DNA of 64,000 nt from an uncultured Gammaproteobacteria bacterium (GTDB taxonomy: Bacteria; Patescibacteriota; Microgenomatia; Levybacterales; GWA1-39-11). Position numbers and translations under genes: made by a program. The notes beneath the pieces are model-generated. The model had not been told where the DNA came from, ran no database searches, and worked only from the letters and a program-made list of their open reading frames with translations. Where the stretch lies: contig CAYRUR010000002.1 in NCBI GenBank assembly GCA_964427615.1, forward strand, positions 81,847 through 145,846, given 5' to 3'. Positions 5,657 through 59,457 of the stretch are shown one piece after another. How positions within the stretch are numbered: the stretch's first letter is position 1; the number at the start of each line of letters is the position of its first letter.

Positions 5657-5718
5657 GAATAGAGATGGGTAAGAAATCGAAAATTGCTGTTTTTGCCTTT
5701 ATTGCCATTGATGTACTT
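5645..5718 (+). repeat. copy 2 of ~73-bp direct repeat (native cyoA promoter and 5-prime end)
   Basis: matches 424-497. Confidence 0.8.
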
Positions 5719-22375: not shown

Positions 22376-22446
22376 AGGTATAATTTGATTATAGCAAGCA
22401 TATTACATCTTGACTATAACCATAATATATTCTAGAGTTAATATAT

Positions 22447-33193: not shown

Positions 33194-33243
33194 ACTCTGT
33201 ATTGTATCAGAATGAATCGGGAAAAATTTGATACAATACCCTC

Positions 33244-38569: not shown

Positions 38570-38835
38570 ATGAGATTAAATTCTCAGTACTAAATTCGAA
38601 ATTCTAAAGAGATTGCTTCGCTAACACTCGCCATGACGTTTGTTTGGATAGCTTTTCCTAAACGTTAAACGCTAGTTCACTGCTCTCTGTTCACTGTTTT
38701 CTTCACATTCCTAAATCATGAATCTTTTTTCTAGCTTTATAAACTTTAAAAACTTTATAACTTTATAGACTCCTTAACTAATCACTAAACGCTATACGCT
38801 AACCGCTTCTCCCCACCTTAATCTCTTTCCATTAT
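38570..38835. repeat. composite intergenic repeat element B (homologous to element A; includes 21-nt inverted match to 8643-8663)
   Basis: see element A. Confidence 0.7.
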
Positions 38836-38884
38836 GTTTCATGCTTTATACCCTATTCTTACAAGGAATTGGTAAAGTATCAAA

Positions 38885-39688
38885 ATGAACGGTATCACAC
38901 AGTCATTCATTGACTCTTTGACCCAACTTTTCCCATTTTTAAAAAAAGAAGAACCTATTCCCATAGAGTCGGTGATAAAAAATAGAAAAGAAGAAGCATT
39001 TTACCGCTATTCGATTTCCATACTCAACCGTGAACGTATTCCCTTTATGGTTGGAGGTACTTATGCTTTCACAGCACATACTGGCATTGTCCGTCCTACT
39101 AAAGATCTTGATATCTTTTGTAAAGCAGGAGATTACCTAAAAATTCTTAATATCTTAGAAAATAAAGGATACAAAACAGAAATAACAGATCCTCGCTGGA
39201 TTGCTAAGGCATTTTATAACGGTTTTTTTATTGACATTATCTTTGCCTCCCGCAGTGATATGGCAAATGTAGATGATGCGTGGTTCAGTCGTGCTCCTTC
39301 TGCAATTATTTTTGAACAACCAGTAAAAATAATTCCGGCAGAAGAGCTTATTTGGAGTAAATCATATGTACAACATAGAGAAAAATATGACGGAGCTGAT
39401 GTAAACCACTTAATACTTAAAAAAGGAAGAGACATTGACTGGCATTATCTGCTCAACAGAATGGAAGCTCATTGGGAAATTTTATTCTCACATATTATCA
39501 ACTTTCGCTTTGTATATCCTTCAGAACGCTCTATTATCCCTCGATGGTTCATGGAAGAAATGCTTTCACGAGTAAAAGCGCAGCTAGATGCACCAGAACC
39601 ACAAGGCAAAATTACCCGAGGCCATTTAATAGCTCATAAGCAATATGATATCGATACCCAAGAGTGGGGATTTAAAAATGTAGAATAA
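38885..39688 (+). CDS. nucleotidyltransferase-fold protein, AbiEii/AbiGii-toxin-like
   Basis: 267 aa; N-terminal MVGGTYAFTAH...RPTKDLDIF resembles GGTA...R.S.DIDF motif of AbiEii toxins; no cognate antitoxin ORF seen. Confidence 0.45.
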   Translation: MNGITQSFIDSLTQLFPFLKKEEPIPIESVIKNRKEEAFYRYSISILNRERIPFMVGGTYAFTAHTGIVRPTKDLDIFCKAGDYLKILNILENKGYKTEITDPRWIAKAFYNGFFIDIIFASRSDMANVDDAWFSRAPSAIIFEQPVKIIPAEELIWSKSYVQHREKYDGADVNHLILKKGRDIDWHYLLNRMEAHWEILFSHIINFRFVYPSERSIIPRWFMEEMLSRVKAQLDAPEPQGKITRGHLIAHKQYDIDTQEWGFKNVE

Positions 39689-39712
39689 TTTTTTTCATCT
39701 TCCTTACTTTTT

Positions 39713-39931
39713 TTACTCCAAATCTCCAATTGCTTCTGCCACATCATTTGGACTATTAAATTCCATATCAGGAAGCATCCGGAGCGTTTCTAATACATTA
39801 TCATCTGCTCCTTCCTCTTCGGCTGTCCGTAATAGATCTTGCTTCGAAGCAGGATAATCAACTCCTTTCAAATACTTCTGCACTTGAATAGGATTCACTA
39901 TTTCATCCATCTCATCATCCATATCTACCAC
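39713..39931 (-). CDS. DUF2795-family small acidic protein
   Basis: 72 aa; YLKGVDYPASKQDLLRTAEEEGA...FNSPNDV. Confidence 0.55.
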   Translation of the reverse strand: MVDMDDEMDEIVNPIQVQKYLKGVDYPASKQDLLRTAEEEGADDNVLETLRMLPDMEFNSPNDVAEAIGDLE

Positions 39932-40028
39932 CTCCTTTATCCTGTTTTATAGAGGTACTGATTGATAAATCTATAAAAAGGAGGTAAGAGTTGAGTAATG
40001 AGACATTAAAAAACGATAAAATCAAATC

Positions 40029-40724
40029 TTAGAATGCATATCTTCCCTTCTCTTTTTTCTGTTCTTCTTTTCTCTTTTTCAACAGCTTTTCTACTTCTTC
40101 ATCTGTAGTCTGTGGAAAATGAGCATACCATAGCCCCACGGCATTAAATTCAACCGGACATACTAAACAAATAAACTCATCTACCTCATGTTCAAAGAAT
40201 CGTGCAGAATCCTCAGCACATACCGGCACGGCAAACACAATTTTGCCAACCTTCAATTTTTTTAAAGCCTTGACTGCCGCTCGCGCCGTAACTCCTGTTG
40301 CTAATCCATCATCAACCAAAATAACTGTTTTGTTTTTTAGGTAGGATAAGTCTTTACCACCGCGATATCGTTGTACTCTCCTTGCTAATTCTTTTTTCTC
40401 TTTCTCAAAAATAGGTTGAATTTCTCTTCTATCAATACTCAGACCTTCAATTGTTTCGATATCAAACAACGTCACATCTTCTTCAGATATTGCACCAATA
40501 CCAAATTCTTCATGTCTGGGTGCACCAATTTTGCGCGCAATAATGACATCAAGAGGAAGATACAAAGTATGAGCCACTTGATATCCTACTGGAACGCCAC
40601 CACGCGGTAGAGCAATAACAACTGCCTCCGAATCCTTGTACTGCATAAGAGATTGTGCCAGATATGCACCTGCATCAGTACGATCATAAAATGGTATCTC
40701 TACTTCATATCTGCTTTTATTCAT
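40029..40724 (-). CDS. type I phosphoribosyltransferase-domain protein
   Basis: 231 aa; VILVDDGLATGVTARAA PRPP-binding motif. Confidence 0.7.
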   Translation of the reverse strand: MNKSRYEVEIPFYDRTDAGAYLAQSLMQYKDSEAVVIALPRGGVPVGYQVAHTLYLPLDVIIARKIGAPRHEEFGIGAISEEDVTLFDIETIEGLSIDRREIQPIFEKEKKELARRVQRYRGGKDLSYLKNKTVILVDDGLATGVTARAAVKALKKLKVGKIVFAVPVCAEDSARFFEHEVDEFICLVCPVEFNAVGLWYAHFPQTTDEEVEKLLKKRKEEQKKEKGRYAF

Positions 40725-41908
40725 GATGATATCTGCAACCCTCTACTGTGTAACCGCAGCCACAATAAAATATCCTTTCTTGTTAAAAACCCTAATAATT
40801 TTCTCCCCTCCACCACCGGAACTTGTCCAACATCTTTTCTCACAATTTTATACACTGCATCTGCAACTGCCTCTTTTGGAGACACCACATCAAGGTCTTT
40901 AAATGGAGTCATAACATCCTTTACCCTTTTTTTCTCCCAATCCTGCCTTTCTACTTTCTGTAAATCCTCCTGACACACCAGTCCTTTCAACTCGCCATTT
41001 TCAATAACAGGAAATACATGCTTATCAGTACCAATCATATAATCATCTACCAATCTACTTAATGAAAGGTCTGCTGGAACAACATGCATGTTCTCCCGCA
41101 TTAACGAAGCCACTTTAACATCTTCCAGTGCTTCTTGTAAAACTACCTGCTGCATACTTTGTTGTGCTGCACTATTCAAAAACCACCCAATAAAAGCAAG
41201 CCACAACCCACCTATAAGTCCAGAACCTAACACAGGAATAGATATGCCAAATGCCATAGCAACTCCGGTAAAAATAAAAGTCCAAGCAACTATTTGTCCA
41301 ATAGTTGAAGCAATAGCAGTCGCTCTATGTAAGCTACCCGTTATAGCCCAAATAGTAGAACGTAAAATTCTACCTCCATCCAGAGGAAAGCCAGGTACCA
41401 AATTAAAAAAACCAAGCAAGATATTAACTGGACCCAACCATAGAAAAAGTGTGGCTATCGAATTAAGCGCTAAAACATTTTGAGGTAGTCCTAAAGCTAT
41501 AAACGAAACCCCAGATGCAAGACTAGCCAAAAATAAGAAAAAAACTCCCAAAACAATACTGGTAATAGGCCCCACAATCGCCATTAAAAACTCTGTTGCA
41601 GGAGATGGTGGTTCTCTTTCAATGTTGGATACACCACCAAATAAAAAGAGAGTTATCCTACTCACCTGTAAGCCCCTAGCTTTTGCCACAAGTGAATGAG
41701 CCAACTCATGAGCTAAGACTGATGAAAAGAAAAGAAATGAAGCAATAAGTGCAATCCCCCAGGTAAGAAAGAATCCCCATTCAGGATGAAATGTTGGAAA
41801 AACTCCCAATGCTAAATTAAAAGTAACAAGCAAAAAAATTAATATCCAACTGGAATCAATCGTAATATCGATACCAAAAATAGTGGCAACATGAAAGCTG
41901 TCGCGCAT
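40721..41908 (-). CDS. site-2 protease family (M50) zinc metalloprotease with tandem CBS domains
   Basis: 395 aa; HELAHSL in TM helix; C-terminal CBS pair. Confidence 0.75.
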   Translation of the reverse strand: MRDSFHVATIFGIDITIDSSWILIFLLVTFNLALGVFPTFHPEWGFFLTWGIALIASFLFFSSVLAHELAHSLVAKARGLQVSRITLFLFGGVSNIEREPPSPATEFLMAIVGPITSIVLGVFFLFLASLASGVSFIALGLPQNVLALNSIATLFLWLGPVNILLGFFNLVPGFPLDGGRILRSTIWAITGSLHRATAIASTIGQIVAWTFIFTGVAMAFGISIPVLGSGLIGGLWLAFIGWFLNSAAQQSMQQVVLQEALEDVKVASLMRENMHVVPADLSLSRLVDDYMIGTDKHVFPVIENGELKGLVCQEDLQKVERQDWEKKRVKDVMTPFKDLDVVSPKEAVADAVYKIVRKDVGQVPVVEGRKLLGFLTRKDILLWLRLHSRGLQISS

Positions 41909-41989
41909 ATGGGATAAGCTTATCTAGAAATGATGAAAGAGATTTAAGAGATAGGTAAGGATTGGATAATGAATAGTGTCTATGATTTT

Positions 41990-42250
41990 GTTATTTGTTG
42001 ATTATTAACGAGTTGAAAATGAGTAGGTAGTATGCAGGAAATCTAAGATAGCAAAACGTAAAGCTGCAATTTAGATCTAAAAACTTTTTACTTTTAAATT
42101 GTACTTTTGCCTTTTGAATTTTGAGTTTTGACTTTTCATTAACCCGTTAATAACTAATAATTAAATACCTAAACGTTCTCCGCCAATCCCTCTACATTAC
42201 CAATCCTTACCTTATTATTACGTTTTTTTCTTTTAGTTTTAACTTCAATA
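41990..42250. repeat. intergenic repeat region related to elements A/B (cattaacccgttaataactaat, aactcgttaataa modules)
   Basis: short shared modules with 19585-19600 and 53275-53300. Confidence 0.45.
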
Positions 42251-42290
42251 GTGAAAAGTATAAGGAGACATATAACAAAAAAATACGTAC

Positions 42291-43004
42291 ATGATAGATT
42301 TTAAAAAACAGGTCTTGCTTGTTGTAGCTCCACATCCAGATGATGAAGTACTGGGGTGCGCTGGGCTGATGAAAAAAGTAAAAAATAACGGAGGAAAAGT
42401 ATATGTGTTATTTTTAACAAACGGCACTACTCATGAATTTTCAAAAAATGGTGTTACTACCCAACAAGAACGAGAAAAAGAAATAAATGCAGTATCTACC
42501 TTATTACAGATAGATGGATGGAAAATTGCGTTTCCCGGAGATAAGTATCATTTATCTCTTGATACTGTTCCTCAAAAAGAGATTATCCATCAAATTGAGA
42601 AGGGATCTACCATTTCTCTTGAAACAATACAACCCACTATGATTGCAACCACCTACAAATCAGACTACAATCAAGACCATAGAGCGTGTTTTGAAGCAGT
42701 TATCGCTGCTACCAGACCTGCTCCACCTGCTAGCAAACCGTTCCAACCTATTGTTTTTGCTTATGAATTTACCGCTAACCTCACCTGGAGCCTTAGCTCT
42801 TCTCTTACACCGAATATGCTCGTGTCTCTTACAGATGAAGAATTAGAAACAAAAATACAAGCTATGCAGCTATATGAGTCCCAAGTAAGGGACAAAAATC
42901 ATACCCGATCACTGGAACATATCAAAAATCTCGCACGTCTTAGAGGAGCAGGCGCAGGAGTACCATACGCAGAGGCATTCCAAACATTACGAATAGTACT
43001 ATGA
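42291..43004 (+). CDS. PIG-L/LmbE-family N-acetylglucosaminyl deacetylase
   Basis: 237 aa; VVAPHPDDEVLGCAG motif. Confidence 0.75.
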   Translation: MIDFKKQVLLVVAPHPDDEVLGCAGLMKKVKNNGGKVYVLFLTNGTTHEFSKNGVTTQQEREKEINAVSTLLQIDGWKIAFPGDKYHLSLDTVPQKEIIHQIEKGSTISLETIQPTMIATTYKSDYNQDHRACFEAVIAATRPAPPASKPFQPIVFAYEFTANLTWSLSSSLTPNMLVSLTDEELETKIQAMQLYESQVRDKNHTRSLEHIKNLARLRGAGAGVPYAEAFQTLRIVL

Positions 43005-43651
43005 CTATAGCAGGACATCAACCAAACTTCATGCCAAACCTTGCCTTTTTTTACAAAATGGCACATGCGGATTTGTTTGTTATTACAACCAATATCCGAC
43101 TAGAAAAGAGAGAAGGATGGCAACAAAGAAACAAAATACGCACACAACAAAAAGAACTTTGGATCACCACTCCTATTTATGGCTCCCAATCACAACAAAT
43201 AAAAGACGTACAGATAGATAATCAAAGAGACTGGAGAAAAAGACAAGCAAGAACACTGCAGCTTACTTACTCAAAGGGAAAAGGAAATGCTTATCTTCCT
43301 CAACTCCTTTCATTATATGAAAAAAATTGGACACGATTAGTAGACTTCAATGTAGCTATTATTCACATGTTAGCCAGTATTTTAGATATTAAAACCCCCT
43401 TGTCAATTGACGAAGAAACAACCGGTGTAAAACACGAGATTTACATCCGTATTTGCCAAAAATACAAAGGTGACACTTTTCTCTCAGGTCTTGGCTCAAA
43501 GAACTACCTTACCCCTGAAAGGCTGCAAGATTTAGAAAAGCATAACATTACCAACACGTTTGTCAAAAAAGATCTTTCTGCTTACCCTTATTCTACTGTT
43601 CACTATTTATTATCAGAAGGGAAAGATTGGGTAAAACATGCATTACAGTAA
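43001..43651 (+). CDS. WbqC-family protein
   Basis: 216 aa; IAGHQPNFMPNLAFFYKMAHADLFV; 4-nt overlap with upstream deacetylase. Confidence 0.6.
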   Translation: MTIAGHQPNFMPNLAFFYKMAHADLFVITTNIRLEKREGWQQRNKIRTQQKELWITTPIYGSQSQQIKDVQIDNQRDWRKRQARTLQLTYSKGKGNAYLPQLLSLYEKNWTRLVDFNVAIIHMLASILDIKTPLSIDEETTGVKHEIYIRICQKYKGDTFLSGLGSKNYLTPERLQDLEKHNITNTFVKKDLSAYPYSTVHYLLSEGKDWVKHALQ

Positions 43652-44780
43652 AAGGTCACTTATTACCATACTGTTACTTGTCCTTTTTATTCTTGCTGGA
43701 ATAGCTATACTCATTTTGCTATTTGAAATAATAAAAACACGAGATACAGAAGATAAGAAAGCACCACCTCCCCCAAAAACTCAAAAAGAAGATTTTTCAG
43801 TTACTGCTTGGATTCCTTATTGGGATCAAGAAAACGCAATAAAAAGTGCGACAGAAAATATTACCAAACTAGATGCTATTGGAGTATTTTGGTATAAATT
43901 AACTCCTGAAGGAACAGTAACAGTATATGAAAAAGCAATTGAGGATCAACGATTTATAGAATTTGCTCATGAAAATGATGTAAAAGTCTACGCCCTCGTT
44001 GCAAACCTACCAGAAGAAGGAGAAGAGACAACAGGTTGGGACCCGGAACGAGTCGAAAATGTTATAAGTAATGAAGACCAAAGAGAAAAACATATCAATG
44101 ACTTAGTGAATCTGGTAATATATAAAAATTTTGATGGACTAGCTCTGGACTACGAAAATCTAAGGCCAGAACAAAAAGACAATTTTAGTCTTTTTATCCA
44201 AGAACTGGCTCAGGCGCTACACCAACAACAAAAATCTTTAGAAATAGCCATTCATCCAAAAACATCTGAAAATCCTAATACAGAATTCTCTGGTGCACTC
44301 GCCCAAGACTACCAAAAGATTGCTCAATATGCAGATCACCTGCATTTTATGATGTATACTCAACATGGTAGAGAATCAAAGCCTGGACCTTCCAGCACCC
44401 CCGAGAGAACCGAAGCAGCACTTAATTACGCAATTGAAAAACTACATATTCCCAAAGAAAAAATTATTATGGGAATTGGCCTTTTTGGCTTAGAATGGCA
44501 AGTTGAAGGGAATGGATTTACAGGAGTTGAAGATGACCTCACCTATAATCAGGTAGAAAATTTCATAGAGCAGAATAAAACAGACATGTATAGAGATGAG
44601 AATTCACAAAGTGTAGAAATAACTTTTAGAGAAAGTAATACCTTTCATGTAATTTGGATAAATGACGCAAAAAGCATAAAAAGAAGAATACAGATAGCAA
44701 AAAATTATGATGTAGGAGGTGTTTCTCTCTGGAGACTTGGTGGTGAAGATCCAGAGATATGGAATTTTATTACAAAGTAG
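43638..44780 (+). CDS. GH18-like glycoside hydrolase-fold protein with N-terminal TM anchor
   Basis: 380 aa; FDGLALDYE resembles GH18 DGxDxDWE catalytic motif. Confidence 0.55.
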   Translation: MHYSKRSLITILLLVLFILAGIAILILLFEIIKTRDTEDKKAPPPPKTQKEDFSVTAWIPYWDQENAIKSATENITKLDAIGVFWYKLTPEGTVTVYEKAIEDQRFIEFAHENDVKVYALVANLPEEGEETTGWDPERVENVISNEDQREKHINDLVNLVIYKNFDGLALDYENLRPEQKDNFSLFIQELAQALHQQQKSLEIAIHPKTSENPNTEFSGALAQDYQKIAQYADHLHFMMYTQHGRESKPGPSSTPERTEAALNYAIEKLHIPKEKIIMGIGLFGLEWQVEGNGFTGVEDDLTYNQVENFIEQNKTDMYRDENSQSVEITFRESNTFHVIWINDAKSIKRRIQIAKNYDVGGVSLWRLGGEDPEIWNFITK

Positions 44781-44847
44781 TTACGCTCTTTTTACAAAAA
44801 CATAATGATTATAGCCATACAATAAATAGTAAATAAAGAAATAAAAA

Positions 44848-44864
44848 TGACAGACAGACAGACA
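44848..44864 (+). repeat. tetranucleotide tract (GACA)x4 immediately after ATG 44847-44849
   Basis: atGACAGACAGACAGACAgattga read from sequence. Confidence 0.9.
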
Positions 44865-45675
44865 GATTGATCCAGAAGTATTACGCACCCATGCAGAACA
44901 GACAGTTACCCAGCTGAGGGAAGTTGCGGAACACCACGAAAGAACGTATCCAGCAAACATAGATGTAGTTTGGGTTTTCAGTGGTCCTGGCACGTACTAT
45001 AATCCCATACTTGAAGAAAAAGATCCGGAATTTGCCAGATGGATGGATAGAGACAGAATACGCTTAGGTATAGCTTTAGTACGTGAGATAACAGCAAGTA
45101 AAATAAGACAAGCAAACACTACAGTAAAAGCACATGATTTACAAACAGCAGATTTAGAGAATTACAGTCCTATTTTTTACTACAATGGCATACCAGCAGA
45201 AAATGCTGCTTTCAGACGTGCCTTGCAAGACACAAATCAAAAGTGGCCAAAAACAAAACTGGATACCAGTAAAATACTTATAGCAGATACTTTTCTAGAA
45301 CCCGACGGAACACCTCAGTTAATACGCCACACTCTAGATCAAGTAGTCAACTTTTTTCAGGAAGTAGAAAAGGCTGATAAGGATCCTTCACACCCACTTC
45401 ATGGAAGACACACTGTGGCTCTCGTTTCCAATATTGAGCACTTCGTTCGTATCCCTCACTACCTCAATCTCTATAATAAAAAACGTGAAGAAGAAGGAAA
45501 AGAGCCTCTGCAGTTCTGGGCATATGGGCTCAGAACACGAGAGGTCGAGGCATACCAACAAGGTACGTATTTAGGAAAATTACCTGATGTATATCAAAAA
45601 AGTGAAATTGATAGACTCATAACCTATGCAGAACAAGGACATTTGGATATAGAACCTGCTTATTTCAGAACTTAA
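44851..45675 (+). CDS. putative DUF218/YdcF-like protein, start unresolved (open frame from 44851; first in-frame ATG only at 45043; upstream ATG 44847 is out of frame by one GACA unit)
   Basis: N-terminal extension VVWVFSGPGTYYN and TVALVSNIEHFVRI resemble DUF218 conserved blocks; track ORF 45043-45675. Confidence 0.45.
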   Translation, partial: QTDRQIDPEVLRTHAEQTVTQLREVAEHHERTYPANIDVVWVFSGPGTYYNPILEEKDPEFARWMDRDRIRLGIALVREITASKIRQANTTVKAHDLQTADLENYSPIFYYNGIPAENAAFRRALQDTNQKWPKTKLDTSKILIADTFLEPDGTPQLIRHTLDQVVNFFQEVEKADKDPSHPLHGRHTVALVSNIEHFVRIPHYLNLYNKKREEEGKEPLQFWAYGLRTREVEAYQQGTYLGKLPDVYQKSEIDRLITYAEQGHLDIEPAYFRT

Positions 45676-46888
45676 TACTTCTCCTTGGGCTTACCCAACT
45701 ACCGGTAGATCTCTCGGAAAATACAAGAGGAAGAGTAAAAAGAAATAACAGAGAGTCGATATACCGTAAAAAGAAAAATCCTACTCCATACAAAAGCATC
45801 AGAGGTTTTTTCTCTAAGATAGTTGCAAAAATGGTTAACAGATAATCCATTAAAAATAATCCTACAAATAGCTCTGCAAGTGAAATATTTGGTTGTATTG
45901 CTATGACATGAAATTGATTTAGTAACAAAAGTGAGAGAACCAGAGGAGAAGCCAATACTACCAAAGCATATAAAAGCATTTCTATCAAAAACCCTCCTAA
46001 AAAAAGCCAGAACATGCTGGGCCATACACCATTACGAAAAATGGTTTGCCAAAACCCCAAATTCCATCGCTTTACCTGCTTAATATAATCCTTCAAATAA
46101 TAAGGATCCTGACTATACCCTTTCACTGCTGGAATATAAGCAACATTTCCCAATTTTTTCTTTCTTACCTCAAAGGTCATGTTGAAATCTTCAATAACCA
46201 AGTTTGGTGCATCAATAGAAAGTTTTTTTAATACTTTTGTTTTGTACACAGATAACCCCCCTGGAATAATATACGTGACATTGGTATACTTCCACGTCAT
46301 CCCATATCGCATACCTAATTGCAAAATTCTCCATAATCGCACACGATAGGCAATAAAAAAATTTTCCCAAAATCCATAATTCTTTATTTCAGTAACTTGA
46401 TGAGGAGCAACCGCAGCTGTATCTTTTTGTGAGAGAAGTGGTAAGGCGTATTTCATGTAATCTGGATGAATCATTACATCTGCATCGTGAATAAGAATTG
46501 CCTTATATTTCTCATATAAGTTATAACGCTTCATGGTATATACCAACGCCTTTGCTTTTCCTCCATTTGGTTTCTGTGTTATTACATTCACCCGCATATT
46601 GCGTGCTACCGTTGCTGTTTTATCAGTAGAAGAATCATTTACCAAATAAATATTTTTTTTAGGGAGTACTTTTGCTAACGCCTCTATTGTTTTTCTAATA
46701 CTCGTCTCCTCATTATGAGCGGGAATAATGGCAGCAACTTCATTTATTGTAATTGTTTTTGGCTTTCTTCCTTTTCTTTTTGGATGTCTTTTAGGGATTT
46801 TTTCAAACACAAACCGTACCCACCCGATTGCTAACCAGAGGCTAAAATTCACTCCCATTAATGTCATGAAGGATATTAACCATACCAT
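45665..46888 (-). CDS. family 2 glycosyltransferase, polytopic membrane (processive-type)
   Basis: 407 aa; AAIIPAHNEE, multiple C-terminal TM helices. Confidence 0.7.
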   Translation of the reverse strand: MVWLISFMTLMGVNFSLWLAIGWVRFVFEKIPKRHPKRKGRKPKTITINEVAAIIPAHNEETSIRKTIEALAKVLPKKNIYLVNDSSTDKTATVARNMRVNVITQKPNGGKAKALVYTMKRYNLYEKYKAILIHDADVMIHPDYMKYALPLLSQKDTAAVAPHQVTEIKNYGFWENFFIAYRVRLWRILQLGMRYGMTWKYTNVTYIIPGGLSVYKTKVLKKLSIDAPNLVIEDFNMTFEVRKKKLGNVAYIPAVKGYSQDPYYLKDYIKQVKRWNLGFWQTIFRNGVWPSMFWLFLGGFLIEMLLYALVVLASPLVLSLLLLNQFHVIAIQPNISLAELFVGLFLMDYLLTIFATILEKKPLMLLYGVGFFFLRYIDSLLFLFTLPLVFSERSTGSWVSPRRSIKF

Positions 46889-47817
46889 ACCATCGTTTTT
46901 TTAATCCCGTCTTCCAAATCATACTGCATGTCCCATCCCAAACTACGGATTTTAGATAAATCAGGTACTCTTCTATTGTGATCATGTGCCGGACGTCCCA
47001 CAAAAGAAATACCATTTTTCATGTTTGTAAAATGAAGAAAAGATTCTGCCAAAGCAAGAATCGTCATTTCTCTATCACTTCCCAAGTTATATACCTCTCC
47101 CTTTTCCCCTTTCTCACTCACTACAAGCAGCCCCTCCACAAGGTCATCAACAAAACAAAATGTTCTTGTCTGACTTCCATCGCCTTGTACTGGTAAAGGT
47201 TTTCCCTCTTTGATATTTTTTAGAAATGAGGACATGATCCGAGTATCTAACAGATTCATACCAGGACCAAAGGTATTAAAAATCCTTACAATTTTTACAT
47301 CTACTCCAAATTTATAGCTATATACAAAACAAAGACTTTCTCCAATTCTTTTTCCTTCCTCATAAGGACTTCTTTCACCCAAAGGACTTACATTTCCGGT
47401 ATATTCTTCTCGTTGCGGAAATTGTTCTGGCTGTCCATATACTTCTGAAGAGCTTGCATACACAACCACAGCTTTTGTCTTTTGAGCAAGTTGTAATATA
47501 TTACGGGTGCCAATACTTGAAGTAAGAATCATTTCTTCAGCAAGTGGAATGAGGTTTGAGACACCAGTAGGACAGGCTAGATGAAAAATAAAATCAATCT
47601 GCCCTATCTTTTTCTCCATTTCAGGAGAGAATGGATTAGTTATATCCCATTTAAAAAAAGAAAATCGTGGGTATACGGATAAGTGGGTGAGATTTTCTCC
47701 AGTAGAAGTAATAAAGTTATCAACAGCTATCACTGTATGCCCTGCATCCAAAAGTCTTTTGCAAAGATTCATTCCCAAAAATCCTGCCCCACCAGTAACC
47801 AATATTCTTTTTTTCAT
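46876..47817 (-). CDS. NAD-dependent epimerase/dehydratase, UDP-glucuronate decarboxylase (UDP-xylose synthase)-like
   Basis: 313 aa; ILVTGGAGFLG Rossmann motif, YASSSEVYG catalytic region. Confidence 0.7.
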   Translation of the reverse strand: MKKRILVTGGAGFLGMNLCKRLLDAGHTVIAVDNFITSTGENLTHLSVYPRFSFFKWDITNPFSPEMEKKIGQIDFIFHLACPTGVSNLIPLAEEMILTSSIGTRNILQLAQKTKAVVVYASSSEVYGQPEQFPQREEYTGNVSPLGERSPYEEGKRIGESLCFVYSYKFGVDVKIVRIFNTFGPGMNLLDTRIMSSFLKNIKEGKPLPVQGDGSQTRTFCFVDDLVEGLLVVSEKGEKGEVYNLGSDREMTILALAESFLHFTNMKNGISFVGRPAHDHNRRVPDLSKIRSLGWDMQYDLEDGIKKTMVWYG

Positions 47818-47838
47818 TATATACTCCTTTGCACACTC

Positions 47839-49149
47839 TCAAATATGAAATCTGCCAAATAAAAGCTTAGAATTACCGTTTGGACGAGGCGGCATGGTAT
47901 GCAATTCAAATACCAGTGGATTCTTTTCTTTACGTAATAACCCTCTTGTATCAAGAATAGGAACGCCATACTGCAATAAATCTTTATAGGGAATAACTTT
48001 ATGATCAGTAACAATAATCAAAAGGTCTGTATTTTTAACATTTTCTTCTTTCAAAGCACTATTTTGTAATCCTTCAAATTCCGCAACATAGGGATCATGA
48101 TAGGATACTTCTACTCCATATTGCTGAAGCTTATGAGTAATCACTGTTGCTACTGATTCTCTCGTGTCTGCCACATCTGGCTTGTAAGTTACTCCCAACA
48201 ACATCACTCGTTTTTTGCCCCCATGTCCATTTGTTTGGGCAAGTATTTGCATTGTTCTGTCAACCACTTTAAGTGGCTGTCCTTCATTAACATACCCTGC
48301 CAACTCTACCATGGACAGTGAAAGGCCATGTTGTTTTGCATCCTCTACTAAATAAAAAGGATCTACAGGGATACAATGTCCTCCCACTCCTGGTCCCGGA
48401 TAATGAGGCATAAAAGCAAAAGGCTTTGTACCTGCTGCCTCTATCACTTCCCAAATATCTATCCCTACACTTCTTGAATAGTCAGCTATTTGATTCATAA
48501 GACTGATATTCACGAGTCTAAATGTGTTTTCTAAGAGTTTTGACATCTCCGCTGTCTCTAAAGTAGAGACAACAAATACTTCTTTTACCATTGTCTTATA
48601 AAACTGTTCTGCAATTGCTATTGAGTACTCTCCGTACCCTCCCACAACTTTAGGAATATCACGAAATGAGTAGATTGTATTTCCAGGATCAATTCTCTCT
48701 GGAGAATAAGAAAGAAAGAAATCAATATCTGGCACAAGCCCTGACTTTTCAAGAATAGGCAAGGCAACCATACGGGTAGTACCAGGAGCAATAGAGCTCT
48801 CCACGGTTATCAGCTGTCCTGGTCTTAAATAAGTAGCAACTGTTTCAAATGCTTGTTTAAATGGTTGAAGGTCGGGGATTTTTAGTGCATCTACTGGAGT
48901 GGGTACACTCACACATACAACATCACAAGAAGAAAGCTTTGAAAAATCGACAGTTGCAGAAAAGCGGGGAATATGCATACTCTTAACCCTTTCAACAGCT
49001 TGGGAAGCCGTATCAAAACCAAGCACCTCATATCCTGCTTCGCTTGCACCTTGCCCTAAGGTCTTGCCTACATACCCTACACCCACTATACCTACTCGGG
49101 CCTTTTTGTTAATAATCTTGCCATATAACTCCCCCTTTTTTTCCATCAA
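47839..49149 (-). CDS. UDP-glucose/GDP-mannose dehydrogenase-family nucleotide-sugar dehydrogenase
   Basis: 436 aa; VGIVGVGYVG, GGHCIPVD catalytic Cys. Confidence 0.8.
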   Translation of the reverse strand: MMEKKGELYGKIINKKARVGIVGVGYVGKTLGQGASEAGYEVLGFDTASQAVERVKSMHIPRFSATVDFSKLSSCDVVCVSVPTPVDALKIPDLQPFKQAFETVATYLRPGQLITVESSIAPGTTRMVALPILEKSGLVPDIDFFLSYSPERIDPGNTIYSFRDIPKVVGGYGEYSIAIAEQFYKTMVKEVFVVSTLETAEMSKLLENTFRLVNISLMNQIADYSRSVGIDIWEVIEAAGTKPFAFMPHYPGPGVGGHCIPVDPFYLVEDAKQHGLSLSMVELAGYVNEGQPLKVVDRTMQILAQTNGHGGKKRVMLLGVTYKPDVADTRESVATVITHKLQQYGVEVSYHDPYVAEFEGLQNSALKEENVKNTDLLIIVTDHKVIPYKDLLQYGVPILDTRGLLRKEKNPLVFELHTMPPRPNGNSKLLFGRFHI

Positions 49150-49260
49150 CTAACGCCTTTCCCCGTCTCCTCTTGGTAATGTAATGATTAGAAGACATTT
49201 TTCACTATAGAGGTAGAAGTTAAAAATAAAATCAAAAGTAAATAATGATTGTGTAAGAAG

Positions 49261-50058
49261 TTACTTCTTATTAACAATAAGGGAAAGAAGAAAAAGAAAA
49301 AGAGCTATCAAAACAATAGATCCTCCTGCTGCCAAATCAAAGTAAAAGGACATAACTACACCACTTATCACAGAAAAAATAGAAATAATCTCAGCAATTA
49401 CAATGGTGTGCAAGAAATCTTTTTTAAATTGTAAAGCAGTAATAACCGGAATAACGACCAGTGCGGAGATGAGCAAAACACCAAGAATAGGAATAGCCAG
49501 AGCGACCGTAAGTGCTGCTAGAATAATAAAGAGAATATTAATAAAGGTTACCGGAATTCCACCAACACGTGCTGATTGTTCGTCAAAAGATACATATACC
49601 AACTCTTTAAAAAACGCCACTACCAACCCGATTATGACAATTCCTAAAATTGCAATACGCACGACATCTGTTTCTCTCACCGCTAAAATGCTACCGAACA
49701 AAAAATTAAAAAGATTTGTATTAAATCCATTGGCAAAGCCTATCAAAACAACTGCCACCGCAAGGCTTCCTGATAGAAAAATAGATAGTGCTGATTCTCC
49801 ATATACTCGTTTGGAAATACGCAATCGTTCAATAGCCACTGATGAAAAAACAGCGGCAATCATCGCAGTAAGCACTGGACTTACACCCAGTAAAAGCCCT
49901 ATAGCTACACCTGCCAATGACACATGAGAAAGAGTGTCAGCAATCAGCGAATAACGACGCAATACCAGAAAAATACCGATAAGAGGAGCAATTACTCCTA
50001 TCACGAGTCCTGCTTGAAGTCCTCTAATAATAAAATCGTATGCAAAAATATCAATCAT
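49261..50058 (-). CDS. metal (Zn/Mn) ABC transporter permease
   Basis: 265 aa polytopic; operon with ATPase and SBP. Confidence 0.75.
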   Translation of the reverse strand: MIDIFAYDFIIRGLQAGLVIGVIAPLIGIFLVLRRYSLIADTLSHVSLAGVAIGLLLGVSPVLTAMIAAVFSSVAIERLRISKRVYGESALSIFLSGSLAVAVVLIGFANGFNTNLFNFLFGSILAVRETDVVRIAILGIVIIGLVVAFFKELVYVSFDEQSARVGGIPVTFINILFIILAALTVALAIPILGVLLISALVVIPVITALQFKKDFLHTIVIAEIISIFSVISGVVMSFYFDLAAGGSIVLIALFLFLLSLIVNKK

Positions 50059-50822
50059 AATATATGTGGACCCGCTACATATTTAATATCTCTTCCATAC
50101 AACTTTTCCAGATAATTCCCTTTTACAAATGTTTCAGTCGCACCATGATACACTAATGTTTGGTTAATACAGGCAATTTCCGTAACCTCATTTGCGACAA
50201 CTCCTATATCATGAGAAACCAAGACTAATGTGAGGTTTAACTTTTGATTCAATTTTCTCAATAAAGTATAAAAGTCTATTTGATTTTTCACATCTACTCC
50301 TGCTGTGGGCTCATCCAGAAAAATAATTTCCGGTTCTCCTGCTAAAGCACGTGCAATGAAAACTCTCTGCTGCTGACCACCGGACAAATCACCTATTCTT
50401 CTCTTAGCAAATTCCTGCATTTCCACTTGTTCCAAAGACCGGTCTATAATTTTTCTATCTTCTTGCGTCAACCAATGAAACAAACCTTTTTTGGCATACC
50501 GTCCCATGGCAACCACTTCTTCAACAGTAATAGGAAATCGGGAATCAAAATTGTGAAATTTTTGAGGAATATAGCCTAATTTTGATTTATCTTTAAATCG
50601 ATTAATAGGTTGTCCAAAGAGTTTTATCTCTCCTTCCTTTATAGGTAAAAGACCTAGTATGAGTCTTAACAAGGTTGACTTTCCTCCTCCGTTGGGGCCG
50701 ATAATTCCTAAGTAATCTCCTCTATGAATTGCAAAAGAGATATCTTTTAACACCAACTCTTTGGCATAAGAAAAAGAGATATGAGAAATTTCTATGATAT
50801 TTTCTGAATGATCTAGTTGCAT
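50055..50822 (-). CDS. metal ABC transporter ATP-binding protein
   Basis: Walker A GPNGGGKST, signature LSGGQQQR. Confidence 0.85.
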   Translation of the reverse strand: MQLDHSENIIEISHISFSYAKELVLKDISFAIHRGDYLGIIGPNGGGKSTLLRLILGLLPIKEGEIKLFGQPINRFKDKSKLGYIPQKFHNFDSRFPITVEEVVAMGRYAKKGLFHWLTQEDRKIIDRSLEQVEMQEFAKRRIGDLSGGQQQRVFIARALAGEPEIIFLDEPTAGVDVKNQIDFYTLLRKLNQKLNLTLVLVSHDIGVVANEVTEIACINQTLVYHGATETFVKGNYLEKLYGRDIKYVAGPHIL

Positions 50823-51736
50823 ACCAACGCCTTTTCTAAATTCGCAAGATTAGCTTCCATGATAGTGAAATAATTTTCACCTTTTGCTTCATCTTCTGGT
50901 GTGAGTCCTTCAGCCGGATTTAAAACCAATGTTTCTACTCCTGTCTCTTGAGCTAGAGTTTGAGAAAATCGTGGACTTGTTAACTCTTCGAAAAAAATAT
51001 ACTTTACCTGCTTTTCCCGCACAAATGTTGCTAATTCAGCCAATTTTCGTGCAGAAGGCTCTTCTTCAGGACTCAGGCCTGAGATAGCCACTTGATTCAA
51101 ATTATATTCCTGAGCTAAATAACCAAAGGCTGCATGAGCGGTTACGATATCTCGTTTTTGACAAGTCGCAAGACCTTGTCTGTACGCACTATCCAACTCC
51201 TGCAAGGAAGCAATTAGTTCATCTGCATTTTTTTGATAGTAAGAAGCGTTTTTCGGATCTTCTTTTTTGAAAGCTTCTGCAATAATTGCCACTTGATGCT
51301 GCGCAAGCTCTGGACTAAGCCATACATGAGGATCAGTACTATGCTCTGCAAAAAGATTTTCATTTATCACAAGCACCTCAACATCCTTGCCTATCAAATT
51401 TTTTTGCATTGCAGGTGCCCAGACCTCAATATGACCATTCAGTAATAGAAGATCACTATGCTGTATCTTTACCACGTCTTGCGTTGTTGGCTCAAATTCA
51501 TGCGCCTCCACTCCTGCCGGAGTAATATTAATAACATGAGCATGATCACCCCCAACTACAGAGGCAAAATAATAGAGAGGGTATAAAGAAGTAACAACAT
51601 CTATTTTTCCTGTGTTACTGGAGTTATTACTCTTCTGAAGCAATAATTGTCCACCAAAAGTAAAGACAAAAACTGCGAAAACAATAACAATAAGCAAGAT
51701 AAGAATTCCTTTATTTTTAACTTTCATTCCTGACAC
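50813..51736 (-). CDS. metal ABC transporter substrate-binding protein (ZnuA/cluster A-I family)
   Basis: 307 aa; HVWLSP motif, signal anchor. Confidence 0.75.
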   Translation of the reverse strand: MSGMKVKNKGILILLIVIVFAVFVFTFGGQLLLQKSNNSSNTGKIDVVTSLYPLYYFASVVGGDHAHVINITPAGVEAHEFEPTTQDVVKIQHSDLLLLNGHIEVWAPAMQKNLIGKDVEVLVINENLFAEHSTDPHVWLSPELAQHQVAIIAEAFKKEDPKNASYYQKNADELIASLQELDSAYRQGLATCQKRDIVTAHAAFGYLAQEYNLNQVAISGLSPEEEPSARKLAELATFVREKQVKYIFFEELTSPRFSQTLAQETGVETLVLNPAEGLTPEDEAKGENYFTIMEANLANLEKALVCN

Positions 51737-52146
51737 CTTTCACAAACTCCAAAAAATTCTAATGAGTGACGCTTTACTAAAAAGTTTTTTTCCTGTTCTA
51801 CATTTTTTTCAAAATCTTCCACAACACAATCTGCAATATCCTGAATTGTTCCACATACTTCACAAATCAGATGATGGTGATCGGGTCTTCCAGCTAACTC
51901 ATACCTGAATTTTCCCTCATACAGCTGAATTTGTTTTGCCAGCCCTTTATCCGTAAAAGCATTGATAATACGAAAAACAGTTGCTTGATCCACCTGAATA
52001 TCATTTTTCTGCAGATGCTCTTTTATCATTGAGACATCAACAGGATTATCTGTTTTTTCCAAATATTTAAGAACTGCAATACGTGCAGGAGTCGCACGCA
52101 AAGATATTTCTTTTAACTCCCTTCGACAATCGTGTCTATTTTTCAT
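51724..52146 (-). CDS. Fur-family metalloregulator (Zur-like)
   Basis: 140 aa; HHHLICEVCG...CERC. Confidence 0.75.
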   Translation of the reverse strand: MKNRHDCRRELKEISLRATPARIAVLKYLEKTDNPVDVSMIKEHLQKNDIQVDQATVFRIINAFTDKGLAKQIQLYEGKFRYELAGRPDHHHLICEVCGTIQDIADCVVEDFEKNVEQEKNFLVKRHSLEFFGVCERCQE

Positions 52147-52187
52147 CCTATCTGGACTATATCACACATGCAAGTAAGTTGCAATAA

Positions 52188-53156
52188 TTACTTTCTTAAA
52201 GATCCTTCTACTAAGAAAAAAGCAAGATAAAGAAAAAGAAGTATCAATGCCTCTTTGCGAGAAATAGTATTTGCTGTACGACAAAAATAGAAAAAGAGTC
52301 CCAAACCGACCAGCAAAAAGAAGAAAATAACTAAAAAGCTATCCTCTACCCGTATGGTCTCTGCTCCATGTAACAAGGTCAGCACTCCAAAAAGCAAGAC
52401 ATTAGCAGCAGCTGATCCTAAGTAATCACCAAAAGCAATATCTGTTTTTTTAGAAAGCACAGACCTGACTGCAATAGAGAATTCAGGCAGATTAGTACCA
52501 AGTGAAAGAAATAAAAGACTTATATAAAAAGGAGAAATGCCAAGTATGTTTGAGAAAAAAAGAGTCTTATCAACAATAATATTGCTTGAAATAAAAACAA
52601 TACCTACCCCTGCCAGCACCTTTCCTATATCTAGAAAAGAATACCTTTTGTACGTTAAAACATCTTGAGCATTTTTTTCAAATATGCCATTCCCCCTCTG
52701 TACCAGATAAAACAAACATCCATATACAACCAAAAGTATCACTCCCTCAACATCAGTTATATGCTTGTCAATCAATAGAAAGGCTGGAAGACACATGGTA
52801 AGCAAGAAAAAAATAAGTGTTTTTTTCCCTAAGTGGTTTTTTAGCTTTATTCCTTTTGCCATAATAGCCAATGCCGGAATAATAAATAAAAACATTGCTG
52901 CAATACCTCCCACTAAATTTCCAACAAATATTTCTGGCTTTCCTTCAGATACAGAGGTAAGTCCTACTGCAAATTCAGGAATAGACGTCAAAATTCCTAA
53001 CACAAAAAAAGAAATGGCAAAAGAGGAAATGTGCAGTTTTTTAGAAAATCTATCAACTGCCTGCACAATAAGCCCAGCTCCCAACCAAATAGCTACAAAA
53101 GACACAAAATAGAGAATAAGACTAGTAAGAACCATGAGCAGTTCCAGTATAGACAA
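52188..53156 (-). CDS. CaCA-family cation/Ca2+ exchanger
   Basis: 322 aa; two alpha-repeats (LTSIPEFAVG, LGTNLPEFSIA). Confidence 0.7.
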   Translation of the reverse strand: MSILELLMVLTSLILYFVSFVAIWLGAGLIVQAVDRFSKKLHISSFAISFFVLGILTSIPEFAVGLTSVSEGKPEIFVGNLVGGIAAMFLFIIPALAIMAKGIKLKNHLGKKTLIFFLLTMCLPAFLLIDKHITDVEGVILLVVYGCLFYLVQRGNGIFEKNAQDVLTYKRYSFLDIGKVLAGVGIVFISSNIIVDKTLFFSNILGISPFYISLLFLSLGTNLPEFSIAVRSVLSKKTDIAFGDYLGSAAANVLLFGVLTLLHGAETIRVEDSFLVIFFFLLVGLGLFFYFCRTANTISRKEALILLFLYLAFFLVEGSLRK

Positions 53157-53360
53157 AGCCTGAGAGGGAATGCAAGCAGGGAGAAATTCATGAATGAGAA
53201 TTGAGAATTACGAATTAAGAAAGGAGATCGGTTAGAGTTTAGTGATTAGTAGTTTATAAACTTGTTGTCTTCCAGCTCGTTAACCCGTTAGTAATCAATA
53301 AAGAATATTCTAATCACTTATTCTAAGACTTTTAACTTCTGTTCTCTTCCAAAGATATAA
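53157..53360. repeat. intergenic repeat region related to elements A/B (cggttagagtttagtgattagt is a reverse-complement variant of B module actaatcactaaac...ctaaccg)
   Basis: read from sequence. Confidence 0.5.
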
Positions 53361-53361
53361 T

Positions 53362-53862
53362 TTATACCTCCAGGCTAGCTAATACCTGAGTGGTAAGTTG
53401 AGGAATATGTTTTTCTGCCCATTTTGCCATCTCTTCTTCTTCCCTTTTTATATCCTGACACATTCGTGCTGTTTTTTCGTCTCCTAATGCATTAGCTGCA
53501 GCAACCAGTGAATCATAAGAAGCTATCTCAAATTGCTCTGTTGCATACAAGCTAATAGCTATCTTTACTGCTTTATCATGTGGCGTAATCTCACTCATTG
53601 CTCCTTTTATATTTCCCATGATTTGTGCAAGAAAACTTTTTGCTCGTGAAGTACCTGCCCCTAACTCTTCTATCCTTCTTTTCAGTCTTTCTGCTTGCTG
53701 GTCTGTTATATCTTTATGATCTCTTATTTTTTCTTGCAGTTGAGGATAGTCATCAAGATCATCTATCTGCCCATCTAAAGTGCGACTGATATCTTGCTCC
53801 ATGCCATAAGCATCATTCAGCCATTTTATATATTGCTCTTTTCTATCGCTATCATTATCCAT
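53362..53862 (-). CDS. YciE/YciF-like ferritin-fold protein (DUF892)
   Basis: 166 aa four-helix pattern. Confidence 0.55.
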   Translation of the reverse strand: MDNDSDRKEQYIKWLNDAYGMEQDISRTLDGQIDDLDDYPQLQEKIRDHKDITDQQAERLKRRIEELGAGTSRAKSFLAQIMGNIKGAMSEITPHDKAVKIAISLYATEQFEIASYDSLVAAANALGDEKTARMCQDIKREEEEMAKWAEKHIPQLTTQVLASLEV

Positions 53863-54042
53863 ACCTCATTTCATACTATCTACTAGGTGTAAGAATGATG
53901 TTCTACAATCCGTAAGAAGCGTGTAATGTACACTAAGCACTATTATTCTTTATATAAAACTCAATGCAATGATTTATTTTCAATACATAATTAAAATTAT
54001 TTTGCTTATTGACATGAAAAACTCACTCATATATATTAAAAA

Positions 54043-56073
54043 ATGAATTGCTCAATGCTTATGAAAATGTTATCTAAAAAGACTCTTCACCTTGCACTCC
54101 CTTCCTTCCTTATTCTTGCTATAGCTGCTATTATCACATCTAACAACACTAATCTCTTCAACTTTCAAGCTGATGCTGATACTGCAAATCCAGAGCCAAA
54201 AGTAATGAATAACCTTTTGTCTAACCCTTCCATGGAAGTCGAAGTAAACGGCGAAGTCGAAGCATGGGGAGCCCGTACATCAAATAATTGGGATAACACA
54301 ATTCATCACTATGGCAATGCTTCTATGCATGTAGTACCTGCTACTGACGCTTACCGCTACTCACATAATACTATTACTCTAGAAGCCGGAAAAACTTATG
54401 TACTGCAAGGCTGGGTTAAAACAGAAAATGCTTCTGGCAGTGGGGTATATATTCGTTATGCCCAAACAAACCCTACTCCAACTAAAGTCTTTACCACTGA
54501 AAAACTAAATGGAACCAATGGCTGGACAAAGGTCACCAAAACCTTCACTCTTCCAGCAGATTATGCAGCAGGACGAGTTGATATTGTTTGGGAGATAACC
54601 GCAGGAGAAGCTTGGATAGACGACGTTGCTCTTTGTGAAAATGAATGTATAGAAGGAATAGCAAATAAGCTTGCGAATTCTTCTATGGAAGTAGTAGTAA
54701 ATGGTGATGCTGAAGCATGGGGAGCGCGAGCAACCAATAACTGGGACAACGCTGTCTACCATTCCGAAACTGCTTCCATGCATGTCGTGCCTGCAAATGA
54801 CGGCTACTACTACGCACATCAAACAATTACTCTTCAAGCAGGATCCACCTATACTATACAAGGATTTATAAAAACAGAAAATGCTTCTGGAAGTGGGGTA
54901 TATATTCGTTATGCTCAAACAAACCCTACTCCAACTAAGGTCTTTACCACTGAAAAACTAACTGGAACTAATGATTGGACAAAGGTCACCAAAACCTTCA
55001 CGCTGCCTGCAGATTATGCAGCAGGACGAGTTGATATTGTTTGGGAAATCAATGCTGGTGAGGCTTGGATTGATGATGTTATGCTCTGCGAAGGAAATGG
55101 TCCTTGTGCCCAAGATACTACTGCTCTCAAAGTATGTGATGAATCAATCCATAACAAATATGTAACCACCGGCCCTGACGGACAGACATATGCCACCTGG
55201 CATCCATCCACAGACCCTGAAACAGGTTGTATCTTCGGACATGAACATGGCAACAATCCGGAAAGCGTTTTGCCAGGATACAAACCAGCATTTGGATACA
55301 CTGCAGGTCGCATGGGCATGACAGAACCACATAATGGATTTAAAGTGTATGCTTTCACTGACTACGATGATGAGAGCTGGGTCGTAACACATCACTTTGG
55401 CACAGCCGGTAGAGGCACGCTTTGTAACCAATTCCATACCATAGATGTTGCCGTAGGACAAGCTAGTGGAGAAGTACTCGCTGATCTACACACTATGGCA
55501 GATCATGGACGTTCTCGATTCTTTGATGGTCAATACATGACACCAGCAGAATGCCCTGATCAAGTAAATATCAATTCCTTTGGTATTAGAAGAATCCCTA
55601 TGTCTCCTGATGGATATGAGCCATGGTTGGTAAATGATAAGATACATCATCTTGGACTCAATGTTGCGCTTAACATCCTAACTTCAGATGCCATCATGGG
55701 CTGTGAAGATCCTACCTGTAGTGTAATGAAGCGCAATGGTACTAACACCGGTTCTCGCAGAAGATTTCAAGCGACAGTAGGATCAAACGGCTTGCAAATT
55801 AACGAAACTGTTACTACTACCAACAGCGGTATCTTTTATACTGACTCTATGGGACATGAGATGAGAATGGCTACTGATTCTGACTCTGTTATGCAATATA
55901 TCAAACCAGGATACCATGGTGAGGCAACTATTGCTCGCAGTGACCAATTGGACGCAGCTCGCGGAGGATGCTGGTACTACAACGGACAAAATGCACCTAT
56001 GGGTTGCTCAACAGGAGACTTGAACGGTGCAGATCCTCTACTCTTACCAACAGAGTTAATTGGATCTAACTAA
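54043..56073 (+). CDS. secreted protein: signal peptide, two tandem CBM-like beta-sandwich modules (~150 aa each), then ~330-aa Cys/His-rich domain of unknown function
   Basis: 676 aa; internal repeat ...ENASGSGVYIRYAQTNPTPTKVFTTEKL...TLPADYAAGRVDIVWEI... present twice. Confidence 0.7.
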   Translation: MNCSMLMKMLSKKTLHLALPSFLILAIAAIITSNNTNLFNFQADADTANPEPKVMNNLLSNPSMEVEVNGEVEAWGARTSNNWDNTIHHYGNASMHVVPATDAYRYSHNTITLEAGKTYVLQGWVKTENASGSGVYIRYAQTNPTPTKVFTTEKLNGTNGWTKVTKTFTLPADYAAGRVDIVWEITAGEAWIDDVALCENECIEGIANKLANSSMEVVVNGDAEAWGARATNNWDNAVYHSETASMHVVPANDGYYYAHQTITLQAGSTYTIQGFIKTENASGSGVYIRYAQTNPTPTKVFTTEKLTGTNDWTKVTKTFTLPADYAAGRVDIVWEINAGEAWIDDVMLCEGNGPCAQDTTALKVCDESIHNKYVTTGPDGQTYATWHPSTDPETGCIFGHEHGNNPESVLPGYKPAFGYTAGRMGMTEPHNGFKVYAFTDYDDESWVVTHHFGTAGRGTLCNQFHTIDVAVGQASGEVLADLHTMADHGRSRFFDGQYMTPAECPDQVNINSFGIRRIPMSPDGYEPWLVNDKIHHLGLNVALNILTSDAIMGCEDPTCSVMKRNGTNTGSRRRFQATVGSNGLQINETVTTTNSGIFYTDSMGHEMRMATDSDSVMQYIKPGYHGEATIARSDQLDAARGGCWYYNGQNAPMGCSTGDLNGADPLLLPTELIGSN

Positions 56074-59226: not shown

Positions 59227-59457
59227 CTAATTCTTTTTTATGAAGTCACTCTAAAAAGCACACTACCATAAATACTACAGGTTTATTAATTAATCCTCGC
59301 TATAAGAAAATCATACACTATTCATATCCAAAAAAAGAACAGGAAAAGGGTAATTCATATTACTATAAGATTTACTTCTCTTACCTGCTTCTTACTTACT
59401 TCTCGTTGTATTCTTAGGTTTTACCATTATCATAACTCGTGTAATAAAAAAAAAGTC

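Follow-up and report, generated by a model that had tools for sequence, protein, structure and literature searches.

A probable recent slipped-strand frameshift directly after the start codon of an accessory glycan-cluster gene

The glycan gene cluster and its protein family

We analysed one 64-kb stretch of DNA (the window), in which the gene under study lies within a cluster of envelope-glycan genes, as the original prediction had proposed. Upstream on the same strand are genes for a PIG-L de-N-acetylase, a WbqC-like protein and a GH18 hydrolase, while the downstream side is occupied by convergent genes for a GT2 glycosyltransferase, an epimerase and a UDP-glucose dehydrogenase (Table 1). 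The end of the GT2 gene overlaps that of the gene under study, hereafter the family gene, by 11 nt. Immediately upstream of PIG-L, a divergent intergenic region of 382 nt contains about eight degenerate ACTTTT(G/A)-like units with a period of 7 and 75% matches (42083–42136), which might form an array bound by a regulator or a stretch of bent DNA. Directly downstream of the cluster, a metal-uptake operon (ZnuA/ABC-3/ABC ATPase) and a Fur-family regulator occupy 49261–52146 on the minus strand; this operon is unrelated to the frameshift described below.

Table 1. Features of the cluster and of the start region, in window coordinates.
Feature	Position	Strand	Evidence
PIG-L family de-N-acetylase, first cluster gene	42291–43004	+	Pfam PF02585, E 7e-21
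WbqC-like protein	43001–43651	+	Pfam PF08889, E 5e-40
GH18 (GH85-like) hydrolase, N-terminal membrane anchor	43638–44780	+	Pfam PF00704, E 1e-30
Native ATG, now out of frame with the family gene	44847–44849	+	Homolog N-termini; 3-unit translation
Perfect tetranucleotide tract, GACA x4.5; equals (ACAG)4 at 44850–44865	44849–44866	+	Tandem Repeats Finder
Mini-ORF MTDRQTD-stop, 7 codons, expected product of the native ATG at four units	44847–44870	+	Translation
274-codon open frame, complete family protein	44851–45675	+	Homologs, AF2 model
Near-cognate in-frame ATT (Ile6), overlapping the mini-ORF stop (ATTGA)	44866–44868	+	Sequence reading
ATG of the gene callers' 210-aa P0001; internal Met65, WMDRDRI motif	45043–45045	+	Homolog alignment
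Membrane GT2 glycosyltransferase, convergent	45665–46888	-	Pfam PF13641, PF00535
NAD-dependent UXS-like epimerase/decarboxylase	46876–47817	-	Precomputed Pfam PF01370, PF16363 in L001
UDP-glucose/GDP-mannose dehydrogenase	47839–49149	-	Precomputed Pfam PF03721, PF00984, PF03720 in L001
-10-like hexamer, example region	22375–22400	-	
-10-like hexamer, example region	19217–19242		
-10-like hexamer, example region	33220–33243		

The cluster recurs in related loci. L009 and L010 share the gene order PIG-L, WbqC, (PMT_2, DegT), GH18, an unknown gene, the family gene and then the convergent GT2, UXS-like epimerase and dehydrogenase, which matches the window; PIG-L, WbqC and GT2 are syntenic in L009, L018 and L020. 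Of the GH18 relatives with sufficient flanking sequence, the nearest three (L018, L019 and L020; 52% GH18 identity) carry the same cluster, in which GH18 runs up to or into the convergent GT2 at 6145–6152, 3297–3304 and 4340–4431, respectively. Since the family gene is missing between GH18 and GT2 in these three loci, it is accessory, dispensable and patchily distributed.

The original prediction had described the product as DUF218/YdcF-like, a label that failed in Pfam, hhalign and Foldseek comparisons. Specifically, DUF218 (PF02698) gave no Pfam match at E<=1 for the window protein and 27 homologs, nor at E<=0.01 for 10 distant family members, and hhalign returned a probability of 0.6% against E. 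coli YdcF. NCBIfam gave no match for the window protein, and neither Pfam nor NCBIfam assigned a family to the long or the short product. A sequence-profile search of the PDB yielded chance matches only, and a Foldseek search of the PDB with the AlphaFold2 (AF2) model found nothing significant. The family comprises 294 cluster representatives at E<=1e-3, and its named members belong to Candidatus Curtissbacteria and Levybacteria. Among the homologs, which we labelled P0002–P0187, P0086 is a GH18 fused to the family domain, and three representatives (P0145, P0152 and P0169) bear a C-terminal GNAT domain. Additionally, the family gene adjoins GH18 in L009, L010 and L012, and P0016 also follows GH18. 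Our best guess is that the family acts with GH18 in processing an amino-sugar polymer. This unannotated GH18/GNAT-linked family of about 300 representatives offers a concrete target for studies of the cell-envelope chemistry of CPR bacteria.

A second glycan cluster lies at 58090–63457 and is also seen in L014 (8446–13188). It contains three GT9 heptosyltransferase-like genes, a GT4-SIS (GmhA-like) fusion, a HAD phosphatase and a PfkB+cytidylyltransferase (HldE-like) gene, which together form an ADP-heptose-type pathway; such a pathway is unexpected outside LPS producers. The window also encodes a COX1 cytochrome/quinol oxidase subunit I at 6600–8573 (+, E 6e-138), with 5665–6591 upstream of it. 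The glycan genes of the same genome are most similar to those of Microgenomates (CPR), a group usually without respiratory chains. The host is probably a CPR bacterium of the Microgenomates type.

Start codon, repeat tract and reading frames

The long frame of the family gene begins directly after a TGA that overlaps ATG 44847, runs in +1 relative to that ATG and ends with the TAA at 45673–45675; its earliest ATG, GTG or TTG is the one at 45043. Tandem Repeats Finder reported 100% matches for 4.5 copies of GACA behind ATG 44847, and translation from this ATG stops at the TGA at 44868–44870. Both the repeat-encoded mini-ORF and the frame that is open from 44851 with its first canonical start at 45043 are thus as originally predicted. 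The claim that losing one unit or gaining two would bring ATG 44847 into frame was likewise borne out with in silico alleles: 3, 6 and 9 ACAG units give products of 274, 278 and 282 aa from this ATG, and the other unit numbers from 1 to 8 lead to a stop after 3 to 28 codons. With one ACAG removed, the start reads ATG ACA GAC AGA CAG ATT GAT, which is translated as MTDRQIDPE... and continues through the full 274 aa; the (ACAG)4 tract is one unit above the in-frame state.

The 18-nt GACA tract is the longest period-4 run of the window, followed by runs of 14 and 12 nt. The window also has an AAGA tract at 48708–48721 and a CCTT tract at 54100–54111. No period-4 run of 18 nt arose in 1000 order-1 and 1000 order-3 Markov simulations of 64 kb, and a run of 16 nt arose in fewer than 1% of them. 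The tract exceeds chance for the composition of the window. A sigma-70 scan of 44781–44846 gave no convincing promoter. Neither Rfam nor tRNA searches across the window returned any element, the tract site included.

Comparison with homologs locates the native start. Most of the 40 homologs (34–45% local BLASTP identity, about 254 aa) cover 96–100% of the 274-codon read-through, and in the protein alignment their N-termini follow the pattern M-[TSVK]-E-R-[QLHF]-[IV]-[DN]-P and align at 44847. The start of P0008, MTERQIDPQEL, sits exactly on QTDRQIDPEVL of the window, and residues 1–5 are missing from several homologs. The window read-through keeps all 27 invariant alignment columns, seven of which (V40, V42, S44, G45, P46, G47 and T48) fall upstream of 45043, and its residues 13–57 contain the peptides THAEQTVTQLR, EVAEHHER and TYPANIDVVWVFSGPGTYYNPILEEK. 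The 44851–45042 block, originally described as conserved-looking, is therefore part of the protein. Because the homolog N-termini match and the unit-number alleles restore the frame, we assign ATG 44847 as the native start with one unit too many; the earlier claim that the gene is off frame by exactly one repeat unit holds on the same two grounds.

An AF2 model built on the alignment (pLDDT 89.9, pTM 0.90) places helix H8–27 and strand E39–42 within the fold with confidence. Translation from 45043 would yield a product without these two elements and without the invariant VFSGPGT loop, and this product is predicted to be probably inactive, as core elements would be missing. We also considered 45043 as an evolved start and rejected it, since this codon encodes an invariant internal Met65 and the codons upstream of it are conserved as in the intact homologs. 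An SD-like motif was not found upstream of 45043. Across the window, an SD-like tetramer precedes 14 of the 49 genes, and a TATAAT-like (-10-like) hexamer ends 4–14 nt before the start in 12 of 49, against a background of 6.9%. Such hexamers near the start were observed upstream of homologs in L003, L004, L005 and L011 as well. Both this organism and its relatives seem to make frequent use of leaderless or short-leader mRNAs, and internal initiation at 45043 becomes still less likely on this account. These data correct the public annotation, in that the 210-aa call is truncated and the real gene has 274 aa with its start at 44847.

Origin and age of the extra unit

The original prediction gave a sequencing or assembly frameshift as its main alternative. 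An exact-protein look-up located the locus in Logan contigs (L001 and L016) from two different sequencing runs. The contig of SRR7082966 (10,465 nt) corresponds to window positions 38754–49218 and that of SRR7082976 (15,832 nt) to 38754–54585, each with 0 mismatches and (ACAG)4 included. With the NCBI assembly, three assemblies from at least two libraries stand at four units, all of them consensus sequences in which a minority of 3-unit (ON) cells would not show. Zero mismatches over 15.8 kb across runs thus indicate a near-clonal population. Both Logan contigs start exactly at window position 38754, a point that may mark a repeat or a junction that varies between strains. A literature search on the run accessions found no paper.

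An artefact, with three units and an intact gene in the true genome, would fit a source that is a metagenome-assembled genome, in which repeats can be mis-assembled, and an in-frame state that is just one unit away. However, the assemblies agree base for base over 10–16 kb with the tract, and short-read errors do not typically take the form of a clean insertion of 4 nt into an 18-nt tract. Coding sequence makes up about 90% of the window, and none of its other genes is obviously split. Because the tract is identical in independent assemblies of two runs and no other gene is obviously split, we regard an error as very improbable. The family gene thus bears a real interruption relative to its intact homologs, of +4 nt and present in two runs.

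The codons downstream of the lesion are otherwise undisturbed. Apart from the 4-nt shift relative to the family, the frame is intact, and we found no further decay (extra stops, indels or lost conserved residues) in the 274-codon ORF; as a candidate nascent pseudogene it would have a single lesion, with all 27 invariant residues kept. The identity to the family of residues 6–64, which are now untranslated, relative to that of residues 65–274 is 1.06 in the window read-through and 1.05 +/- 0.08 in the intact homologs. Since the upstream codons show no additional decay, the frameshift looks recent. Either it is indeed recent, or the N-terminal region is still being translated, whether in a subset of cells or by one route or another, or is under selection; a fully intact downstream ORF would also be seen with a reversible switch that is maintained, or with a frameshift that is bypassed.

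We think it probable that a real and recent one-unit slipped-strand event has silenced this accessory glycan gene, in a manner that is reversible in principle rather than as a demonstrated evolved switch. The event may have started from a lineage-specific codon choice: codons 2–5, T-D-R-Q (T-E-R-Q in relatives), are spelled ACA GAC AGA CAG, which is a perfect (ACAG)3 micro-repeat, and a plausible ancestor, ACA GAA AGA CAG, would be one substitution short of it. Replication slippage would then have added one unit, converting (ACAG)3 to (ACAG)4. From the native ATG, translation would now yield a 7-residue peptide and stop, leaving the remaining gene without a start until the Met65 codon. Because the peptide from ATG 44847 stops and the Met65 product would be without the first helix, the strand and the most conserved loop, the present allele is most likely null (OFF). 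Loss of one unit could revert it, at the low rate expected for a 4-unit tract, and the locus would carry a loss of function that is tolerated and possibly transient, not a switch that evolved to act at high frequency. The dispensability of the gene fits a tolerated loss-of-function allele and is also typical of phase-variation targets. If the reading is correct, slippage by a single unit within a very short coding microsatellite has here produced a clean, verified frameshift of natural origin, an event of a well-known type.

We considered whether protein could still be made from the 4-unit allele, through (re)initiation at ATT 44866–44868 or through a +4 ribosomal hop. The ATT, whose use as a non-canonical start is speculative, is the only near-cognate start that would preserve the whole fold, and several homologs do without residues 1–5; for a hop, the codons ACA, GAC, AGA and CAG each repeat exactly 4 nt downstream in the frame of the gene, and the ORF is without decay. 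However, the homologs are all single-frame and none needs recoding, the stop context GAU UGA permits no P-site re-pairing in +1 as read from the sequence, and an SD-like element before the ATT is absent. ATT initiation and ribosomal hopping are inefficient in the bacteria studied. Both routes are weak candidates, and we consider continued expression by either of them quite unlikely. A prfB-type programmed +1 frameshift was rejected, as AUU offers no re-pairing for GAU and the homologs are all unsplit. An alternative code with TGA as sense was rejected as well, since TGA terminates 11 of the 49 genes; it also fails on the TAA two codons upstream in the frame of the gene.

Another explanation is a contingency locus, in which (ACAG)n is kept as slippage toggles the accessory glycan gene between ON (3, 6 or 9 units) and OFF at a useful frequency. 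The architecture is a known one: a unit whose length is not a multiple of three, in the form of (ACAG)4, lies in the frame directly after the ATG of an accessory glycan-cluster gene, and a change in unit number toggles between full-length and truncated product in silico. The tract length is unexpected from composition, the unit is identical to that of H. influenzae lgtC, and the ORF is wholly intact though OFF. Moreover, the gene is accessory among relatives, and phase variation usually targets accessory, dispensable genes. However, the length of the tract, 4.5 units by Tandem Repeats Finder and four complete units, lies below the PhasomeIt cut-off of at least 5 units for tetranucleotide SSRs (PMC6321876), and far below the 8–38 GACA units, varying between strains, of the proven H. 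influenzae lgtC (PMC2651432, Table 5).

The distribution of the tract also speaks against a contingency locus. It was missing from homolog DNA at all nine loci examined, where the starts read ATGACTGAAAGACAA, ATGACTGAACGACAA and similar, and the 64-kb window contains no other frame-shifting tract at the usual cut-offs, its homopolymers being A/T only and at most 9 nt. Since the homolog DNA is repeat-free, the tract is lineage-specific, and its ON state would be three units only, which are merely the conserved TDRQ codons. An exact look-up covering about 15 billion public proteins found neither the 3-unit nor the 6-unit ON protein, and the flanks of the tract, used as a pattern with a variable gap, were unmatched in JGI metagenome contigs. 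The closest relatives found reach at most 47% identity for the family protein and 52% for GH18, and a scan of genome contigs gave relatives of at most 43%. Among the papers listed in a literature search, none connected Patescibacteria to SSR phase variation, and the consensus state is equal in both runs. The phase-variation switch of the original prediction therefore found no positive support, given four units, tract-free homologs, no ON allele in public data and the same state in the runs, and we judge a contingency locus to be unlikely. That prediction had named as evidence against itself an invariant four-unit tract combined with a protein starting at 45043; the first part was observed, in two consensus assemblies, and the second was not, as 45043 is the internal Met65.

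A contingency locus would nevertheless have distinct consequences. If it were true, the cell-surface polymer would vary within the population, for example with respect to phage or host/partner recognition, giving surface heterogeneity in a near-clonal population. To our knowledge, work on stochastic switching of surface glycans has been almost confined to host-adapted pathogens and has not extended to ultra-small uncultivated bacteria. Should length heterogeneity prove true, SSR phase variation would be new for CPR bacteria, as far as we know and according to our literature search. A young, working contingency locus, which would be the first SSR phase switch in a Microgenomates/CPR-type bacterium and would toggle a GH18-partner family, is in our estimate quite unlikely.

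Comparison with known systems

At the level of the protein, the family loosely resembles DUF218/YdcF/SanA (PF02698) in its alpha/beta fold, in a first strand followed by a Gly-rich loop and in its envelope-related context. It differs from PF02698 in that 38 members have no Pfam match, hhalign gives 0.6% and Foldseek finds no solved match. At the level of translation, the locus is like prfB in having a short upstream frame that ends at UGA and a main frame in +1, but it has no slippery P-site codon and no conserved stimulatory SD, and the frameshift occurs in no homolog.

The closest counterpart in architecture is H. influenzae lgtC (HI_0258), which shares the GACA/ACAG unit and its placement within the earliest codons of the ORF, with the number of units likewise setting the frame. 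Both genes are non-essential surface-glycan targets, and in both the repeat encodes a hydrophilic peptide (T-D-R-Q). In contrast to the 8–38 strain-variable units of lgtC (PMC2651432), the window gene has 4, or 3 in the ON state, and it shows no length variation in consensus, has tract-free homologs and is accompanied by no further such locus in 64 kb. By this analogy, hypermutability of the window tract is unlikely to be high.

With ordinary slipped-strand alleles and nascent pseudogenes, the window gene has in common the one-unit growth of a short, codon-born repeat, a dispensable gene and no other lesion. It differs from them in the position of the tract at codons 2–6 and in that loss of one unit restores the gene perfectly, which makes the allele formally reversible.
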